A stretch of DNA of 64,000 nt. Source: Phormidesmis sp. GTDB taxonomy: Bacteria > Cyanobacteriota > Cyanobacteriia > Leptolyngbyales > Leptolyngbyaceae. A program made the position numbers and the translations under genes. Below, one piece after another: positions 31,902 through 38,603 of the stretch (position 1 is its first letter; each line of letters opens with the position of its first letter). The notes below the pieces were generated by a model. The model was given only the letters and a program-made list of their open reading frames with translations. It searched no databases and was not told the origin of the DNA. The stretch lies in the NCBI GenBank assembly GCA_965248535.1, contig CBDFJR010000005.1, forward strand, positions 320,001 to 384,000. The letters are read 5' to 3'.

Positions 31902-32105
31902 ATGTTAAAAACACTGTGGGCTACGGTTCGGCAGGGAAAAATTGAGCTATTGGAGTCAGCCGAACTACCAGAAGGGGTAAGAGTACTGGTAACAGTCTTG
32001 CCCAGCGACGAGGCTGAGTTCTGGCTACAAGCAAGTCAAATATCACTCGATGCAGTTTGGGATAATACTGAGGATGACGTATATGCCCAGCTACTCCAAG
32101 CATGA
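31902..32105 (+). CDS. Putative antitoxin
   Basis: GKIELLE...LPEG...WDNTEDDVY; overlaps a MazF-type gene. Confidence 0.75.
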   Translation: MLKTLWATVRQGKIELLESAELPEGVRVLVTVLPSDEAEFWLQASQISLDAVWDNTEDDVYAQLLQA

Positions 32106-32412
32106 TGTTATATTGGTGCGCTATCCCTTCTCAGATTTATCGAGTTCAAAGGTAAGACCTGCTGTTGTTGTGAGTACGTCGCATCCATCTCAAGACATTC
32201 TCATTACTCCTTTAACAAGCAAAACAAGTGCATTACTAGCAGGAGAGTTTGTGCTGTTTGAGTGGGCAGCAGCCAAATTGAACGTAACTACCGCAGTCAA
32301 AAGAGGGGTATATACAGTACATGAAAGTTTGGTGATTAAAGTAATTGGTCAGTTGGTTAAGGTCGATGCTGATCAACTTAAGCAATCTTTGCAAAGCTGG
32401 TTAGGTTTGTAA
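32083..32412 (+). CDS. PemK/MazF family toxin
   Basis: DVILVRYPFSDLSSSKVRPAVVVS...PLTS. Confidence 0.88.
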   Translation: MPSYSKHDVILVRYPFSDLSSSKVRPAVVVSTSHPSQDILITPLTSKTSALLAGEFVLFEWAAAKLNVTTAVKRGVYTVHESLVIKVIGQLVKVDADQLKQSLQSWLGL

Positions 32413-32506
32413 TTTAAGCCAATAGCCACAGCCCAAGGCAGTGTTGGTTTGCAAATGAGTATGATGGGAAGTCTCAAGAGCAAATGCTCAGGTATGGTAT
32501 GCAACT

Positions 32507-33081
32507 ATGTCTAACAGATTGGAGTGTGCACAAAGACTATATGAAAGTGTTTTGGACTGGTACAAAAGTGCAGATTCAAAGGCTCAGGTAGTTTTAGCAA
32601 TCGATGCTGGCTTCTTAGCATTTCTCACAAGTACAGTTTTTTCCGAGCCTGATAAGCTACGAGCAATTCTTGCTGAATTCAATTGGGTAACCTGGTCAAC
32701 TCTAACTTTGATGCTTTTGTCGTTAATAGTATCGATTGGATCATCTATAGCTTGCATTTGGTCACGAATGTATTCATCCAATGAAGTCAAGCGAATTATT
32801 AAAAAAGCCGAGTTGGAATTTAACGACACTAATACTTACCCGCCGGAAAAATAATGTGGTTTTTCCAATTTATTGAAGGTTTGAACCAGCAAAAATTTCA
32901 AGCTACTCTTGAGTCCATTGAGGAGGAATTCGAGCTTAAAGTGATGGCAGAAGAAATTTATATTCTTTCAAAGAATGCTCGCGAGAAACACTTCATATTT
33001 AACATTGGCTTTGGGTTTGCAGCATTAAGTTTAATTCTTTTTGTCGTCGCGGCTGTGAGTTATTTATCCTCTGTCGCTTAA
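32507..33081 (+). CDS. Pycsar-effector-like (DUF5706/PycTM) membrane protein, split at the A5 run 32847-32851
   Basis: DWYKSADSKAQVVL motif, 2 TMs, then WFF...LSKNAREKH and a terminal TM; the halves differ by one frame. Confidence 0.65.
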
Positions 33082-33097
33082 GTTCTAAGTAAACGCA

Positions 33098-33184
33098 GCC
33101 CAACAACCCGGCTGGAGCGGACTGAAGGGAGATCTTGGTAGAAATGCGAAGGTTATTTGCAGCCGCTCAGCCGGAACGTTATGC
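33098..33184 (+). other. attC site
   Basis: R'' GCCCAAC, arms CCGGCTGGAGCGGACTG / CAGCCGCTCAGCCGG with extrahelical bases, R' GTTATGC. Confidence 0.9.
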
Positions 33185-33255
33185 CGCCGAAAATTCAGTG
33201 TGAGAAAGGCATTCAAGCTTTTTAGTTGAGTGTTGTAGTACCTGAAAAATTGAGG

Positions 33256-34194
33256 CTAATTACCCTGATGCTTGGATAAGTCCTCAACAACTTCGAGGAA
33301 ATTCCTTAGAACGGTTGACTGATTGTGAGTTCTCCTAACAGCAACAATTTCTAACACTGGAGAGAATTCCTGAATATCGCGGTAAATGACCCCAGTCCGT
33401 CGAAGGTTTTTCACATTAGCTGGAAGCACTGAAACACCCATCCCTCCAGCGACCAAACTCAACACAGTTGTTATCCAGGCTGCCTCTTGGACAATGACAG
33501 GCTTACAGTGAGCGCTGATGCAAAGTTGATCAATTTTATCGCGTAAGCCACGAAGTAAGGTGTGCGGTGGTAGAACAAACTCCTTGCCGTTAAGCTCTGC
33601 GAGTGAAACACTCGTTTTTTTAGCTAAGAAATGCTTCTCCGGGAGGACAAGCACGAGTGATTCATGAAGAACCAGAGTGTCAGAAAAAGACTCGCTATCC
33701 TCTTTAAGCAAGTCTTGTAAGTTGTGTTTATGGAAAAAGCCAATATCGATTTGATGATTGCGTAACTGTTCGATTTGATCATAAGAAGCCAGTTCATGCA
33801 GAACAAGATTAACGTTCGGAAACTGTTCGCGAAAATCTCGGATAATACTGGGTAATTTGCTATTTGCAATTGATGTATTGATTCCTACATCCAATCGACC
33901 GTATTTTCCTGCTTGGGTTTCCTGTGCGAGTTCAATGGCTTTTTTTGTCTGCTCGATGATTTGCTCGGCTCTTATCAAGAAAGCCTGTCCCGCATCGGTT
34001 AATCCTAAGGGACGAGTTGAGCGATCGAAGAGATCGAAGCCCAACCTTGTTTCTAGTCTCTGGATCTGTTTACTTAAAAAACCTTGGTCAAGATCGAGCG
34101 CAAGGGCTGCTTGAATGAATCCTTTATGATTTTTCAGGGCGATCGCATATTCCAGATGTCGCAACTCAAGTTCGTGCCATCTTGCCGATTTCAT
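33256..34194 (-). CDS. LysR family transcriptional regulator
   Basis: ELRHLEY...LSKQIQRLETRLGFDLFDRSTR...LTDAG HTH; LVAGGMGVSVLP. Confidence 0.92.
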   Translation of the reverse strand: MKSARWHELELRHLEYAIALKNHKGFIQAALALDLDQGFLSKQIQRLETRLGFDLFDRSTRPLGLTDAGQAFLIRAEQIIEQTKKAIELAQETQAGKYGRLDVGINTSIANSKLPSIIRDFREQFPNVNLVLHELASYDQIEQLRNHQIDIGFFHKHNLQDLLKEDSESFSDTLVLHESLVLVLPEKHFLAKKTSVSLAELNGKEFVLPPHTLLRGLRDKIDQLCISAHCKPVIVQEAAWITTVLSLVAGGMGVSVLPANVKNLRRTGVIYRDIQEFSPVLEIVAVRRTHNQSTVLRNFLEVVEDLSKHQGN

Positions 34195-34203
34195 GCTTTT
34201 ACT

Positions 34204-34268
34204 ATGACGCTTTAGTCATGTACTCATGTCAATGATAGCGATTTTATCATATTCATCTCCCCTATACT
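34204..34268. promoter_or_regulatory. Divergent promoter region with two inverted repeats (candidate LysR sites) and a -10 box
   Basis: ATGAC-N6-GTCAT (34204-34219), ATGATA-N7-TATCAT (34232-34250), TATACT (34263-34268). Confidence 0.45.
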
Positions 34269-34324
34269 GTTTTCATCCGAGCAAGCCGCTCAGTCATGCT
34301 TATAACAACAACAAAGAGGAATGA

Positions 34325-34552
34325 ATGATTAAACGTGTTTTGCTGGTAGGCGGGACTCATGGCAACGAACTCATTGGAGTTTATCTCATCAAGAAATTTG
34401 AGCAAGACCCGGAGCTAGTTCGTAGAAACAGTTTTGAAACATTGACTCTGTTAGGTAATCCGAGAGCTATAGAAGCAACTGTCCGCTACATCGACAAAGA
34501 TTTAAATCGTTGTTTCGAGGTTCAGGAGTTCAACTATGAGCAACCTAAGTAG
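34325..34552 (+). CDS. Aspartoacylase N-terminal part
   Basis: GGTHGNE zinc motif, [16 protein letters not shown]. Confidence 0.85.
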
Positions 34553-34591
34553 TACTTATGAAACTCAACGAGCGACAGAAATTGACCATGA
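34521..34591 (+). repeat. 71-bp direct repeat, copy 1
   Basis: 60/71 identical to 35407-35477 by my count; contains AGGAG-N7-ATG. Confidence 0.9.
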
Positions 34592-35394
34592 CACCTATTA
34601 TTATCTATCCATTTACATCAGTCGGAACTGAGGCAACAGACTTATCCATTCATGCCATCAAATACATTTCAGATCCCTTTTTCCTAGCTTTATGCATCAT
34701 CTTTGTTGTTTGCACCTGTACAGGGATCGTGATTCACTCTTGTAAGCCAGCTTTCGTAGATCCAATTGCTAACGTCAAGATGTCAGGTTCTCCCGACCAA
34801 ATTGATTATGTAATAACTGGCTTCTTAATAAATGGATTTGGTTTGATCCTCGCAGCATTTGCTATGCCAAGATTCATACAATTAGAGCCAGTCAAGGCTT
34901 TTATATCGTTCTCTGGAAGTTATCTGTTAGGAATGTTTATTGGCGGATGGTTATATTTTTTATCTCGAAGGACTTTGCTAAGGCTTAGGCTTATTTCACC
35001 GTGGACTACGATTCGCAAACTCCACTGTCAGGAATGCAGGAGATCCCTTCATCTAATTGCATCCTCTAATTCATTTGAAAACCTGTTGTTTAACTATTTG
35101 AATTCAGCCGAGCAAGTAGCTGCAAGACTTGGCAGCACAGACTTTGAGATATGGCAGTGTTCTCACTGTCACCCATCCGCTAATCGGGATAGTGTACATC
35201 TGCGAGGCTATAGAAGATCCGGCTCTGTAATTTGCCCAACGTGTCACGAGGCTACGATGAGTGCAGGTCATGTATCCATCACTCGGAAAGGTCCTCAGGA
35301 AGAAGAAGAAGAGACGACTTACACCTGTCTTTGCTGTTCTAATAGGATGCGGAAGACTCGTACTATTACTTGGTCGGAGTTTGATCCAGTATAA
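34558..35394 (+). CDS. 3-TM membrane protein with C-terminal zinc ribbons (like the tail of TPM-domain proteins)
   Basis: CQEC...AEQVAARLGSTDFEIWQCSHC...CPTC...CLCC. Confidence 0.7.
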   Translation: MKLNERQKLTMTPIIIYPFTSVGTEATDLSIHAIKYISDPFFLALCIIFVVCTCTGIVIHSCKPAFVDPIANVKMSGSPDQIDYVITGFLINGFGLILAAFAMPRFIQLEPVKAFISFSGSYLLGMFIGGWLYFLSRRTLLRLRLISPWTTIRKLHCQECRRSLHLIASSNSFENLLFNYLNSAEQVAARLGSTDFEIWQCSHCHPSANRDSVHLRGYRRSGSVICPTCHEATMSAGHVSITRKGPQEEEEETTYTCLCCSNRMRKTRTITWSEFDPV

Positions 35395-35406
35395 GTCATG
35401 AATAGT

Positions 35407-35477
35407 TTCAGGAGTTGAAGTATGAGAAACCTAAGTAGTATCTATGAAACTCAACGGGCTAGAGAAATTAGCCGTGA
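35407..35477 (+). repeat. 71-bp direct repeat, copy 2
   Basis: Matches 34521-34591; supplies the RBS and start of the aspartoacylase C-terminal part. Confidence 0.9.
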
Positions 35478-36114
35478 GTTTGGATCAGAAGGACGAATGC
35501 CTGTAGATATGATCATCGATCAGCACAGTACCACCTCTAATGCAGGATTAATGCTGATTCTGGATCAGCTTGATGCTTTTACCTTGAATTTGGCAGTCTA
35601 CCTGACTGTTATACAGCCTGCTCTAAAGGTCTATAGTTCTACTAATTCGGGGCGAAATCGCGATTCCCTGCGATCGATTGCCAAATATCGGATTGGGATT
35701 GAGGTTGGTCCTATTGCTCATGGCATACTACAAGCAGAACTGTTGCAAAAAACCGAAGACTTGATTTATCCGATTTTAGATTATGTGGAGCAGTACAACA
35801 ACAACATGGTTGCCCTTGAGACTTCTCCGTTGCTCCTTTACCAGTATGTTGGTGTGATCGACTATCCCAGAAATGACCGGGGCGAGATTGCAGCAATGAT
35901 TCATCCTCAGCTTCAGTTCCAAGACTATGAAGCATTGAAGCCTGGTGCGCCAATGTTTTTGACTTTTGATGGGGAAACGATCTGCTATTCAGGAGATGCA
36001 ACTGTTTATCCCCTTTTCATTAATGAAGCCGCTTATTATGAAAAAGGCATTGCGATGTGTCTGACTCAAAAGCAGCGATTTCATGTCAACCTTAACCCAC
36101 TTGAGCATTTATGA
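35422..36114 (+). CDS. Aspartoacylase C-terminal part
   Basis: YETQRA, IIDQHSTTSN, GIEVGP, IDYPR, MIHPQLQ, FINEAAYYEK. Confidence 0.85.
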   Translation: MRNLSSIYETQRAREISREFGSEGRMPVDMIIDQHSTTSNAGLMLILDQLDAFTLNLAVYLTVIQPALKVYSSTNSGRNRDSLRSIAKYRIGIEVGPIAHGILQAELLQKTEDLIYPILDYVEQYNNNMVALETSPLLLYQYVGVIDYPRNDRGEIAAMIHPQLQFQDYEALKPGAPMFLTFDGETICYSGDATVYPLFINEAAYYEKGIAMCLTQKQRFHVNLNPLEHL

Positions 36115-36725
36115 TATTTCGACAGAATCTAACCACGATCGCGACAATCATCGGAATGTCAATCATGCCACTGCCAGCTTTCTCTACAGAGGTTCTAATT
36201 AGAGTAGACTGTCTGAGTCCAACTCAAGGCGCAGGAGCCTGCGAGGTGAGATGGCCTAATTTTCCCAACACTGATATCTGGGATGTGACATGGCTAGATG
36301 GCGTGCAAACTAGAATCAGAATGTCTGGGAAAAATGGGCCGCAACGCTGGAATCCACAAAATAAACAGTGGGCTGACGGCTCCAGCGTCGGTCTTTGCTG
36401 GGATCGCCAATGCATTCATCTTCCCCGAGACCAATGGAAATCTTTAGCATCTAAAACGACCAGAGCGCCAATCGAGTGTTCAAATCCTACTCTGCAAGAA
36501 AGTACATGTCAGATGGAATATGTGCGCGAGACAAAAGGTGTTCGAGTTTATTGGCCAGATGGTTCTATCGAACATTACCTCAGTTCGCCAAGTGACAATC
36601 GCTCTGCATTGCAGTGGCGCAAATGGAGCCACAATAAAAATAGATGGATTGAGGTGGCAAATTTTGGGATATGCCTTGACAAAATGTGCTTGCTTTTTGA
36701 TGCTGATTTCTTCAAGAAACGATGA
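36111..36725 (+). CDS. Secreted hypothetical protein with two internal Cys/Trp-rich repeats
   Basis: Signal peptide ending PAFS; repeats V.W.DG...W...W...G.C.D..C. Confidence 0.7.
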   Translation: MIFRQNLTTIATIIGMSIMPLPAFSTEVLIRVDCLSPTQGAGACEVRWPNFPNTDIWDVTWLDGVQTRIRMSGKNGPQRWNPQNKQWADGSSVGLCWDRQCIHLPRDQWKSLASKTTRAPIECSNPTLQESTCQMEYVRETKGVRVYWPDGSIEHYLSSPSDNRSALQWRKWSHNKNRWIEVANFGICLDKMCLLFDADFFKKR

Positions 36726-36809
36726 TGGTTAAGAATGTGAGTTCCATACTGACTTCTGACTGCTAAATCTTGACTTTAAGGTTAGAGCTTGTATAGAGAT
36801 GCCCGAACT

Positions 36810-37049
36810 ATGAAATGCCCTAAGTGTGGTTACAACAATTTGCCGGAAGGAACACGGGATGGGAGATGTGATGAGTGTGGATATCTGATGTTGCCTGAGC
36901 GTGATAATTTTGATCCTAAATGTCCTAAATGTGGTTACAACAATTCGCTGGAAGCGGCACAAGATGACAAATGTGATAAGTGCAAATGTCTGATGTCGCA
37001 TGAGCGTGAGAACATTAGAATGATGGATATTGCATGCTTTTTAGATTGA
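36810..37049 (+). CDS. Tandem zinc-ribbon protein
   Basis: KCPKCGYNN...CDEC and KCPKCGYNN...CDKC. Confidence 0.65.
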   Translation: MKCPKCGYNNLPEGTRDGRCDECGYLMLPERDNFDPKCPKCGYNNSLEAAQDDKCDKCKCLMSHERENIRMMDIACFLD

Positions 37050-37198
37050 GTTTGAGCGTGAGAACATTATAAAGATGAACACTGTTGTAGAGTATAAACG
37101 CATCGACTGGAAAACGCATTGTCAACTTCATTGCCTTAGGGTCGTCTTTCAGCGTTTAACCTCAAGAAATCAAATTGAGATTTTTAATAACGGCATCT

Positions 37199-37528
37199 TC
37201 TGATACGGTCTCTAGACTATGGGTTATTTAAGATTTTGACAGGGTAATTCTTATACTTCTAGAAAATAGATTATGGGGAAGATTTTCTAAAGGGGAAGTT
37301 AAGCCATTTAGCTTAAACAGTAGAGTCTTTAGTTCTAGTCTATAAGATGTTTGAAGTGAGCTTTCTGGTGATGAAGCTGTTAATTCTGATAGCAACCATT
37401 ACACTGGATTTTGTATAGATCGCAAGTTCTGTCTAGACAATAAGGTACACCTCATGATGCCCATTTTCAAGAAGTATAAAATTTTCAAACATACAATGTA
37501 CAATGTGATGGGTAAAGCCGCTGCATAA
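37199..37528 (+). pseudogene. Decayed cassette ORF (start approximate)
   Basis: One frame with scattered in-frame stops ends ...MGKAAA-TAA inside R'' of the next attC. Confidence 0.45.
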
Positions 37529-37609
37529 CAATTCAAATGCATCGGACAGTCGAAAGTTTCTGGTGCTGAGTTTGAGTCTGTCTGCCGCCGCTGACTAGGA
37601 ACGCTATGT
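37523..37609 (+). other. attC site (R' degenerate)
   Basis: R'' GCATAAC...R' GCTATGT. Confidence 0.7.
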
Positions 37610-37636
37610 ATTACAATCTGTGTTTCTGGAGCTCGT

Positions 37637-38161
37637 ATGGAAAAGCATAAGATCACAACACTACAAAATATCTTCAGTTCTAGACTCGATACCTTGAGCC
37701 ATCTCTTAAAGGTAGCCGAGAGTCATTTCGCAGAAGATTTGGAATCTGTATTGCAGCTTCGCATAGCATCCGATATGTTTCCTTTCGGTACACAGATTAT
37801 ATTCACTTGCAATCAGCCTCGCAACTTCGCATTGTGGTGCTTAGAAAAGCCAGAGAGCAACCTAAACCCCGATGTCGCATCTTTAGCTGAGGCTCGTAGT
37901 CATATTTCATCCACTAAGGAGCTTCTGGCAAATATCAATGCTATCGATACTAAGTTGTCAGAGATCAAACGAGTTGAGCTTGGGCAAGGGCTGTATGCAG
38001 AATTATTGGGACTCTCGTATGTAGATGATTTTCTAATGCCAAACTTTTATTTCCATCTGACGACGGCATACGACATCATGCGTATGGCAGGAGTGCCAGT
38101 AGGTAAGCGCGATTTTATGATGCATTTAGTGCCTTTCGTAAACCATCAAAGTGATGCATAA
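37637..38161 (+). CDS. DUF1993 family protein, cassette gene
   Basis: RIASDMFPFGTQI...PNFYFHLTTAYDIMR..GVPVGKRDF; stop lies in attC R''. Confidence 0.88.
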   Translation: MEKHKITTLQNIFSSRLDTLSHLLKVAESHFAEDLESVLQLRIASDMFPFGTQIIFTCNQPRNFALWCLEKPESNLNPDVASLAEARSHISSTKELLANINAIDTKLSEIKRVELGQGLYAELLGLSYVDDFLMPNFYFHLTTAYDIMRMAGVPVGKRDFMMHLVPFVNHQSDA

Positions 38162-38241
38162 CAACTCCAACGCACCGGACTAAAGTCAGTGGTTAATGAG
38201 TTGTAAAAGATATCTGTGTCCGATGATTGGGAACATTATGC
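38156..38241 (+). other. attC site (R' degenerate)
   Basis: R'' GCATAAC, arms TCCAACGCACCGGAC / GTCCGATGATTGGGA, R' ATTATGC. Confidence 0.75.
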
Positions 38242-38292
38242 AGAAAAATCTAAGGGTTAAAATAGGGGTGTCGTTGAAACGAGGTTAAGCCC

Positions 38293-38419
38293 AGGACAGT
38301 TCGACAGCCTCGCTACAGCAAAGAAGAATTTGCTCGACGCGGCGATGAGATCTATAGAATCTCAGGTGCGGCCCCAAGTCGAGGAAGATAATCATGGGAA
38401 GATTGTGGCGATCGACCCA
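38293..38419 (+). pseudogene. Fragment of a small cyanobacterial TA-associated gene
   Basis: (M)TVRQPRYSKEEFARRGDEIY / SQVRPQVEEDNHGKIVAID; start mutated, frameshifted, truncated. Confidence 0.6.
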
Positions 38420-38476
38420 TACCGAAACAGCAAGCCTTGAAGTGAGTTAAAATCGAGAGACTGCGATCGACTATCT

Positions 38477-38603
38477 ATGAGTGAAACCGTCTATTGAAAC
38501 CAGTAGCTTGGGCTACCTGACTGCTCGACCTAGCCGAGACACTGTTGTGGCTGCCAGTATTGACATAACGAGGGAGTGGTGGGACACACGTCGCGGCTAC
38601 TTC
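38477..38603 (+). pseudogene. 5' fragment of a PIN/VapC-type toxin
   Basis: MSETVY / ETSSLGYLTARPSRDTVVAASIDITREWWDTRR. Confidence 0.65.

Follow-up and report, generated by a model that had tools for sequence, protein, structure and literature searches.

The 64,000-nucleotide stretch of cyanobacterial DNA analyzed here (the window; G000:C5:320001-384000 in our numbering), which lies on contig CBDFJR010000005.1 of the 5.03 Mb genome of a Phormidesmis sp., contains a gene of the aspartoacylase family that is encoded in two open reading frames (ORFs) next to a divergently oriented gene for a LysR-type regulator, with an unrelated gene for a membrane zinc-ribbon protein, designated X, nested between the two parts. 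This layout, obtained from ORF and Pfam scans, is real, inherited and unusual. The two ORFs are referred to below as the N chain and the C chain. An earlier reading of the same DNA, made from the letters and their translations without database searches (the sequence-only reading), had described an N part, a middle ORF and a C part with the catalytic motifs kept, and the ORF list bears out that description in every detail, the middle ORF occupying 34558-35394 in its 278-amino-acid (aa) form.

The N chain matches positions 2-67 of the 192 positions of the Pfam profile PF24827 (E=2.9e-20), and the C chain matches positions 76-191 of the same profile (E=3.1e-10) in addition to PF04952 (E=4.6e-26). 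On the aspartoacylase equivalog NF002601 of NCBIfam, with 293 positions and a cutoff of 180 bits, the N chain covers positions 3-73 with 103.5 bits and the C chain positions 76-292 with 252.3 bits. Since the matches of the two chains are separated by only a few loop residues, the ORFs represent one aspartoacylase gene cut at one point. The split gene is a member of the AstE/AspA family by descent and atypical in its architecture: the norm in the family is a single polypeptide of about 290-320 aa, and here there are two ORFs in different frames, 870 nucleotides (nt) apart, the frame of the C chain being that of the N chain +1. The zinc ligands (H and E of HGNE, and the H of D.H) and the substrate-binding and catalytic residues are all present and coincide with invariant columns of the alignment. 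Residue positions were transferred from human aspartoacylase (ASPA; structure 2o4h) through an intact relative, L004, that aligns to it with E=1.1e-66; the catalytic and zinc-binding roles of the ASPA residues are those assigned in the ASPA literature. By this transfer, H21 and E24 together with R63, N70 and R71 of the human enzyme fall on the N chain, H116 and the later catalytic residues fall on the C chain, and the cut lies in a variable surface loop that follows DLNRCF, at about residues 74-87 of human ASPA. An active site would, on this comparison, be built from both chains.

The nature of the cut can be read from the loop. The N chain ends 11 residues past DLNRCF and the C chain begins 7 residues before a conserved YE; in the intact relatives P0017 and P0021, 13 residues separate CF from YE. 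Compared with intact relatives, the old frame of the window is homologous through the residues Y-E and the new frame from N-L-S-S on, so that one extra base at position 34541 (35427 in the second copy of the junction described below) would explain the shift, and the removal of one base regains, in the alignment, the 13-residue loop of P0017 and P0021.

The DNA around the cut is present twice, as direct repeats of 74 nt (34518-34591 and 35404-35477) that are 84% identical and spaced by 886 nt; the sequence-only reading had delimited them, with the same spacing, as 71 nt with 60 identical positions. At this offset of 886 the gapless repeat score is 39, the best within 33900-36600, the maximum in shuffled sequence being 13 (n=30). 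Each copy holds AGGAG-N7-ATG (34524-34538 and 35410-35424), out of frame with the N part, and the same N-frame TAG 14 nt further on, just as had been noted before. Since an ATG in the new frame follows AGGAG at a distance of 7 nt and the stop of the old frame comes 14 nt later, the junction forms a compact module of stop, Shine-Dalgarno (SD) sequence and start. The inserted DNA between the copies (34592-35403, 812 nt) is almost exactly the X ORF. No inverted repeats were found at the ends of the insert, and no further copies of X or of the junction were found in the genome. The features of the locus are collected in Table 1.

Table 1. Features at the split aspartoacylase locus (positions within the window)
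Feature	Position	Strand	Basis or remark
LysR-type regulator, 312 aa	33256-34194	-	ORF; PF00126 and PF03466; divergent from the aspartoacylase operon
Divergent intergenic region, presumed promoter/operator for LysR and the N-X-C operon	34195-34324	.	Position only
N chain, 75 aa, with HGNE zinc ligands and RY.D.DLNR substrate residues	34325-34552	+	ORF, Pfam, NCBIfam
Junction repeat copy 1, with N tail, TAG 34550-34552, AGGAG 34524-34528 and ATG 34536	34518-34591	+	
C-chain remnant, 31 codons, opened by ATG 34536	34536-34631	+	ORF reading of copy 1
Putative extra nucleotide (C) causing the +1 shift	34541 (copy 2: A at 35427)	+	Alignment with intact relatives
Nested gene X, 268 aa; 278 aa from upstream ATG 34558	34588-35394	+	Three predicted helices, then two CxxC...CxxC zinc ribbons
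9-nt spacer from X stop to repeat copy 2; right end of inserted DNA	35395-35403	+	
Junction repeat copy 2, with AGGAG 35410-35414, C-chain ATG 35422 and other-frame relic of N tail and TAG	35404-35477	+	
C chain, 230 aa, with DQH zinc ligand, GIEVGP, AAYYEK and barrel-sandwich domain	35422-36114	+	ORF, Pfam, NCBIfam
Downstream ORF (ORF204), 204 aa, signal-peptide-like start, Cys/Trp-rich (two repeats)	36111-36725	+	Without Pfam or NCBIfam family

The split locus is not a misassembly. Contigs from two sequencing runs of the window's organism (X1 and X2) are identical to the window over 33900-35293 and 35405-36500, and a single 1864-nt contig from a run of another organism (X3; organism B, about 96% identical) spans 33980-35823 and thereby the N chain, X and the start of the C chain. 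This upholds the view of the sequence-only reading, which had also called for a check of the reads, that the split is not one sequencing slip. The X3 contig differs from the window by 75 substitutions and by 9 gap letters (3+2+2+1+1, a multiple of 3), all of them within 35299-35375 in the 3' tail of X; indels are absent from the N chain, the body of X and the C start. A further N chain, P0122, is 93% identical to that of the window, likewise 75 aa long, and stops at the same codon. The contig graphs of X1 and X2 each contain a bubble at 35264-35434 with two alleles, one of which is the window sequence (depth ratio 13.8:4.3 in X1 and 11.2:19.4 in X2). The second allele carries 18 substitutions along with 13 gap letters. 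They are limited to the 9-nt spacer and the final ~100 nt of X, the last of them being at 35404, where repeat copy 2 begins; the flanks are otherwise identical or nearly so. The bubble looks like a recombination patch or a second strain.

To place the split in its family context, we compared 179 homologous loci outside the window's own genome, drawn from relatives, metagenomes and species-representative genomes (some records are in both collections, and the metagenome and genome scans with the C chain contribute 80 listed matches each). Among the matches listed, 178 of the 179 are single-frame, with a distance of -29 to +40 nt between their N and C parts; the exception is truncated by a contig end. 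The split gene belongs, as judged from sequence relationships, to a second, LysR-linked group of aspartoacylase paralogs. Its closest relative in the searched genomes is L004 (genome G038), a single 293-aa ORF that is 68% identical and has the same divergent LysR neighbor; P0002, another intact LysR-linked relative, is 73% identical. A divergent LysR gene with 54-77% identity adjoins 13 of the 19 loci of closest relatives that were tested. An order-wide search with P0004 in 90 genomes detected the LysR-linked paralog in 4 of the 89 other genomes of the window's order, always intact, and it was not found in the 7 same-genus genomes searched. The window's genome also encodes an intact aspartoacylase elsewhere (G000:C2:1130167-1130799). 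Its open frame comprises 320 aa, its identity to the C chain is 51%, and this is the copy common to all 7 same-genus genomes searched (46-52% identical, one match each). A plainly decaying aspartoacylase can be seen in a genome of the same family (G016:C37:9235-9868), where a broken copy gives two matches, in frames of 199 and 108 aa, with one internal TGA.

The sequence-only reading had asked whether homologous loci are intact, split at the same site or host to different inserts. Beyond the prevailing single ORFs, two contigs were found to be split in the same loop, and none carries a different insert. The protein database records P0123 (79 aa) and P0004 (223 aa) each on a single 2802-nt contig, and P0227 (79 aa) and P0007 (223 aa) each on a single 2502-nt contig, and each pair is taken to share one contig. 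The C chains P0004 and P0007 start at the alignment position at which the window's C chain starts. In both pairs, the N tail with its stop and the head of the C chain (its first 8 residues) can be encoded together only as a +1 overlap of 8 codons: an offset of +2 is impossible, swapped pairs are incompatible and none of 2000 shuffled heads fits. With a +1 overlap as the only possibility, the 2802-nt and 2502-nt contigs therefore carry the split without an insert. A tree of the C region pairs the window with P0001 and joins this pair to the intact P0002 as its sister (support 87); P0004 with P0007 branches earlier, behind starred branches, and enforcing a single split clade costs 35.9 log-likelihood units, with p=0.042 in the approximately unbiased (AU) test. 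In the lineage of P0123/P0004 homology of the new frame begins as early as K-N-N, which would place the lesion there upstream of the ATG. With lesions at different places in the loop and the split groups apart on the tree, we therefore infer two independent one-base insertions, and the insert-free split in the same loop is probably independent of that in the window.

The translation signal at the junction sets the split genes apart. Among 125 distinct 60-nt stretches that follow DLNR, taken from 161 intact loci, AGGAG occurs in three and AGGAG-N5-9-ATG in none. For the other split relatives, the SD sequence is read from the residues Q-E, which stand at its position in all four split N chains vs 2 of the 62 intact proteins with a scorable loop. 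Because SD with ATG is absent from the 125 intact loops and Q-E is found in all four split N chains, the signal is specific to split forms; it would be either a rare precondition for a tolerable split or a feature selected afterwards. Only one of the 125 intact loops, that of L156 from a Leptolyngbyaceae metagenome-assembled genome, has an SD core (AGGA) followed after 8 nt by an ATG. That ATG is in the +1 frame and arises from Asn-Ala codons, a residue pair also found where the C chain of P0123/P0004 starts, and the L156 loop looks like a possible pre-adapted state.

Whether the two parts still evolve as protein was assessed from the amino acid differences between split relatives, which were set against column variability scored on intact homologs only, with p values from permutation. 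The C chains of the window and P0001 (95% identical) differ at 10 of 198 columns, with no difference in the 38 near-invariant columns (p=0.0002), and the mean entropy of the columns that differ is 2.27 vs 1.19 overall. P0004 and P0007 differ at 23 of 223 columns (p=0.0018). For the N chains, with 5 differences in each comparison, p is 0.0057 for the window vs P0122 and 0.09 for P0123 vs P0227. The near-invariant columns are kept at 41/41, 41/41, 40/41 and 38/38 in the four C chains, that of the window being complete at 41/41, and at 21/21 in the N chains of all four split forms. The branch leading to the window/P0001 pair (0.19, with end branches of 0.049 and 0.014) is not longer than that of the intact sister P0002 (0.21). 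As a hint in the same direction, 9 of 13 differences of X3 inside the C chain are at third codon positions, counted in the 40 of 136 differences shown. Taken together, these comparisons argue that both halves kept evolving as a working protein after the split.

The same data bear on the possibility that a dispensable paralog was inactivated by a frameshift and later received an insertion, its halves staying open because too little time has passed or being kept as spacers or translation ramps for X and the downstream ORF. The presence of an intact aspartoacylase in the same genome, the predominance of single ORFs among the homologs listed and the patchy occurrence of the LysR-linked copy (not found in the 7 same-genus genomes searched and detected in 4 of 89 others of the order) all speak for decay. 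We nevertheless regard it as unlikely, given that split relatives differ preferentially outside the conserved columns (p=0.0002, 0.0018 and 0.0057), that the near-invariant residues are all kept, that no indels have entered the N chain, the body of X or the C start across the 75 substitutions of X3, that the branch is not lengthened relative to the intact sister, that a second and probably independent split occupies the same loop, and that SD and ATG are in place here vs none of 125 intact loops. The suggestion of the sequence-only reading that the locus might be an old pseudogene used as an expression scaffold is weakened by these signals of selection but keeps some probability, because the genome also contains an intact paralog.

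In another account, only the 230-aa C chain would still be in use, perhaps in a changed role, and the N chain would be a leftover whose translation feeds ribosomes to X. The signal of selection is indeed stronger for the C chain than for the N chain, where each pair offers 5 differences and one test gives p=0.09, and the upstream ATG of X at 34558 lies 5 nt past the N stop, a distance typical for re-initiation. Against this stand the 21 of 21 near-invariant columns that the N chain keeps in four split forms and, in the model described next, the burial of the N chain against the C chain; moreover, two zinc ligands and three substrate-binding residues are on the N chain, so the C chain alone cannot form the active site of the family. 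We consider this account quite improbable.

A complex of the N and C chains was also modeled, a check that had been proposed with the sequence-only reading. The pair scored 0.92 vs 0.00 for the best of 3 controls; of 157 solved complexes 116 attain this mark, as do 2 of 215 mismatched pairs. At least 93% of contacts recur between runs, the partner has a predicted local distance difference test (pLDDT) value of at least 85, and the N chain is buried against the C chain through 152-171 confident contacts. The outcome is the one expected of chains that assemble; since aspartoacylase structures have already been solved, it may only reflect likeness to them.

The nested gene X is of a different kind. 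Its closest relative, P0134 (265 aa, 42% identical), aligns with its residue 7 to residue 19 of the 278-aa form, and the ancestral start of X is therefore ATG 34588, which gives a protein of 268 aa. The ten codons before this ATG are aspartoacylase repeat sequence read in the third frame, and the upstream ATG 34558, 5 nt after the stop of the N chain, could serve re-initiation. In 16 members of the X family, 8 cysteines are invariant, arranged as four CxxC pairs behind a helical membrane part. No family in Pfam or NCBIfam scored above cutoff, and a Foldseek search of the AlphaFold2 model (pLDDT 83.7) against the PDB returned nothing at E<=0.001, the best rows being generic zinc ribbons. X is single-copy in the genome, and X-like genes occur in 1 of 250 other genomes of the class at E<=1e-15. 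A word-index search with X matched only itself, in a search that would not list a partial X shorter than 152 aa (as might lie on the 2823-nt contig of P0122). A TPM domain precedes the X-like part in some longer relatives (4 of 10 scanned), whereas the N-terminal domain of P0136, P0138 and P0153, likewise longer proteins, spans some 200 aa, contains a conserved W-H-L-H-L-T-Y-T motif and is not named by Pfam. The idea that X is an endonuclease or recombinase was rejected: it has no such domain match in Pfam or NCBIfam and belongs to a membrane family with 8 invariant cysteines.

The direct repeats raise the question of whether X can be deleted by recombination between them, as a switch between the nested form and a plain overlapping two-ORF form or as a step of cargo exchange. 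In its favor, the repeats are 74 nt long and 84% identical, the insert-free state exists in another lineage, and in the contig graphs a second haplotype, distinct over the final ~100 nt of the insert, stops precisely where copy 2 begins. Yet a contig joint that skips the 886 nt was found in none of the four runs, although contigs drop rare variants; no recombinase is encoded nearby according to the ORF list and Pfam, the insert-free contigs belong to a different clade, and no other cargo was seen. We hold such deletion to be very improbable. The sequence-only reading had envisaged a naturally two-chain enzyme with a recombination slot for swapping cargo. Its first part is supported indirectly, by a relative at about 96% identity with the same architecture, a parallel split, the avoidance of conserved columns and the SD and ATG; its second part is not supported, as the loci seen have either no insert (two contigs) or the same X (window, X2 and X3), X is single-copy and a skipping joint did not appear. 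The statement that clean excision would not rebuild a single ORF is correct, the remaining repeat copy keeping the +1 offset.

Recoding, by programmed +1 ribosomal frameshifting or transcriptional slippage that restores a full-length enzyme, was another of the earlier suggestions. The direction of the offset, +1 in both split lineages, would suit it, and there is a superficial resemblance to prfB, in which a +1 offset is likewise accompanied by an SD-like element upstream. In frameshifting of the prfB type, a slippery codon stands at an in-frame stop, the SD sequence is located about 3 nt upstream and the product is full-length. In the window, unlike prfB, the codons before the stop are CCT AAG and the SD sequence is 21 nt before the TAG and 7 nt before the ATG; there is no slippery codon beside the stop and no run of A/T of 7 or more. 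The putative lesions are at different sites in the two lineages. Furthermore, a shift in copy 1 would reach only the 31-codon remnant, with X intervening, and for the window recoding already fails on this point. We give it next to no credence.

We consider it somewhat better than an even chance, going by sequence comparison and modeling, that the LysR-linked second aspartoacylase has undergone gene fission and that its two chains now form a working enzyme. In the proposed course of events, one extra nucleotide in the loop after DLNRCF would have shifted the remainder of the coding sequence into the +1 frame, and the two chains, made separately, would co-fold into one active site, to which the N chain would bring two zinc ligands and three substrate-binding residues and the C chain the third zinc ligand and the catalytic Glu. 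Later, and in this lineage only, the 74-nt junction would have been duplicated and the 812-nt stretch with X placed between the copies. The frameshift presumably preceded the duplication and insertion, because both copies carry it. Template switching or a microhomology-based event seems the likeliest mechanism, since the homology of the repeat copies ends in (A/G)TGA at the X start codon: in a single step, replication would switch template at 34591, copy X and return to the gene 74 nt upstream. Also compatible would be a tandem duplication with a subsequent insertion, or the integration of a circle with a diverged junction. Copy 1 would keep the N tail and its stop and copy 2 the SD sequence and ATG, neither half being lost; the duplicated module ends N and starts C separately, so the DNA between the copies would cost nothing. 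The result would be an operon N-X-C-ORF204 under the divergent LysR regulator. As to timing, copy 1 no longer codes for aspartoacylase over 34553-34591, and there the two copies disagree at 8 of 39 positions, copy 2 keeping the family consensus. This suggests a duplication that predates the ~4% divergence from organism B, provided that the donor had not itself diverged beforehand.

Several points weigh against fission into a working two-chain enzyme. All but one of the 179 loci listed are single-frame and 4 more in the same order are intact, and the intact, 51%-identical paralog in the genome means that the split copy could be dispensable. The tests of selection rest on protein differences, with few pairs and with 5 differences in each N-chain test. 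The AU result of p=0.042 is marginal and leaves some probability for a single origin with reversions. For P0001, which is truncated at the N end, the architecture is taken from X3 and P0122. A donor that had already diverged, instead of age, could account for the 16% by which the repeat copies differ. Finally, the model of the complex cannot tell a working split from a dead one.

A bolder version of the fission reading, which we think doubtful, would make the AstE/AspA fold here an obligate two-chain enzyme and the duplicated junction a safe landing place, on which an incoming gene could settle within the older one and become part of its operon, with X as a functional partner, for example in membrane tethering or in gating the assembly, and with the loop, split at least 2 times independently, as a natural fission point.

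Around the split gene, GAGGA is found 5 nt before the ATG of the N chain at 34325, and the ATG of ORF204 overlaps the stop of the C chain (ATGA), so that the operon probably ends with ORF204. Within this 204-aa ORF, organism B (X3) has one additional base behind 36396. A consensus scan of 33900-37300 for promoters and terminators gave 7 promoter-like and 2 terminator-like sites, not above the number in shuffled sequence. The G+C content over 32000-38500 is 0.35-0.50 throughout and unremarkable in X, with no sign of foreign origin in base composition. An ORF of 86 aa (36789-37049) with two KCPKCGYNN...C..C zinc-ribbon copies is a second zinc-ribbon gene close to X, and at 31902-32412 two small overlapping ORFs of 67 and 120 aa are arranged like an antitoxin and toxin, by arrangement only.

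The nifD, fdxN and hupL elements, which interrupt genes of heterocystous cyanobacteria, are flanked by direct repeats, encode their own recombinase and rebuild one ORF on excision. The locus described here resembles them as a cyanobacterial gene interrupted by DNA between direct repeats, and differs in that X is the only ORF inside the insert, with no recombinase, and that excision leaves the frameshift. The intact LysR-linked cyanobacterial aspartoacylases L004 and P0002 share the family, the divergent LysR gene and the conserved residues; unlike the window gene, they are single ORFs, without SD and ATG in the loop and without a nested gene. Among cases from further afield, the nrdA gene of phage Aeh1 is split into nrdA-a and nrdA-b by the homing endonuclease gene mobE, and the halves are said to come together again as an active enzyme whose active site both of them build (Crona et al. 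2010, PMC3045599). Common to the two cases are an enzyme gene cut into two ORFs by an inserted ORF and short new tails at the junction. The insert in the window, in contrast, encodes a membrane zinc-ribbon protein without a GIY-YIG, HNH or LAGLIDADG endonuclease match; the gene was probably already split by the frameshift before the insertion, its junction is duplicated over 74 nt, and the case is on a cellular chromosome. Fractured genes with split inteins, as described by Dassa et al. (2009, PMC2677866), have a free-standing endonuclease between the halves, and are alike in having two halves on one strand with a foreign ORF between them; they are unlike the present locus, which gives no Hint or intein hits in Pfam and has tails of 11 and 7 residues. 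Antonov et al. (2013, PMC3711429) assign conserved frame transitions to translational coupling or gene fission; the overlapping ORFs involved, which share one Pfam domain and have the downstream start near the upstream stop, correspond to the state proposed for the 2802-nt and 2502-nt contigs. The classes in the excerpted text of that work do not include a gene lodged in a duplicated junction, and its main text has 0 mentions of aspartoacylase or succinylglutamate desuccinylase. The title of a report on mitochondrial cox2 speaks of insertional fission into complementary genes (PMC5374615), a case that concerns animal mitochondria and another gene. In the open-access literature searched, no paper on a split aspartoacylase was found. 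Gene fission, translational coupling and "genes in pieces" have thus been described already; to these the present locus would add a gene that sits inside a duplicated junction.

Gene callers and pseudogene filters would label this locus as a broken aspartoacylase and a hypothetical protein. If the chains assemble, it would instead represent a chromosomal metabolic enzyme that survived fission and builds its active site from two polypeptides. If the proposed history is true, it would also reveal a route by which an unrelated gene can enter another gene without loss of function, through duplication of a junction that combines stop, SD sequence and start. As for the loop, its parallel split in another lineage would point to a site at which the carboxypeptidase-like fold of the AstE/AspA family tolerates fission, one that may be of use in the design of split enzymes.

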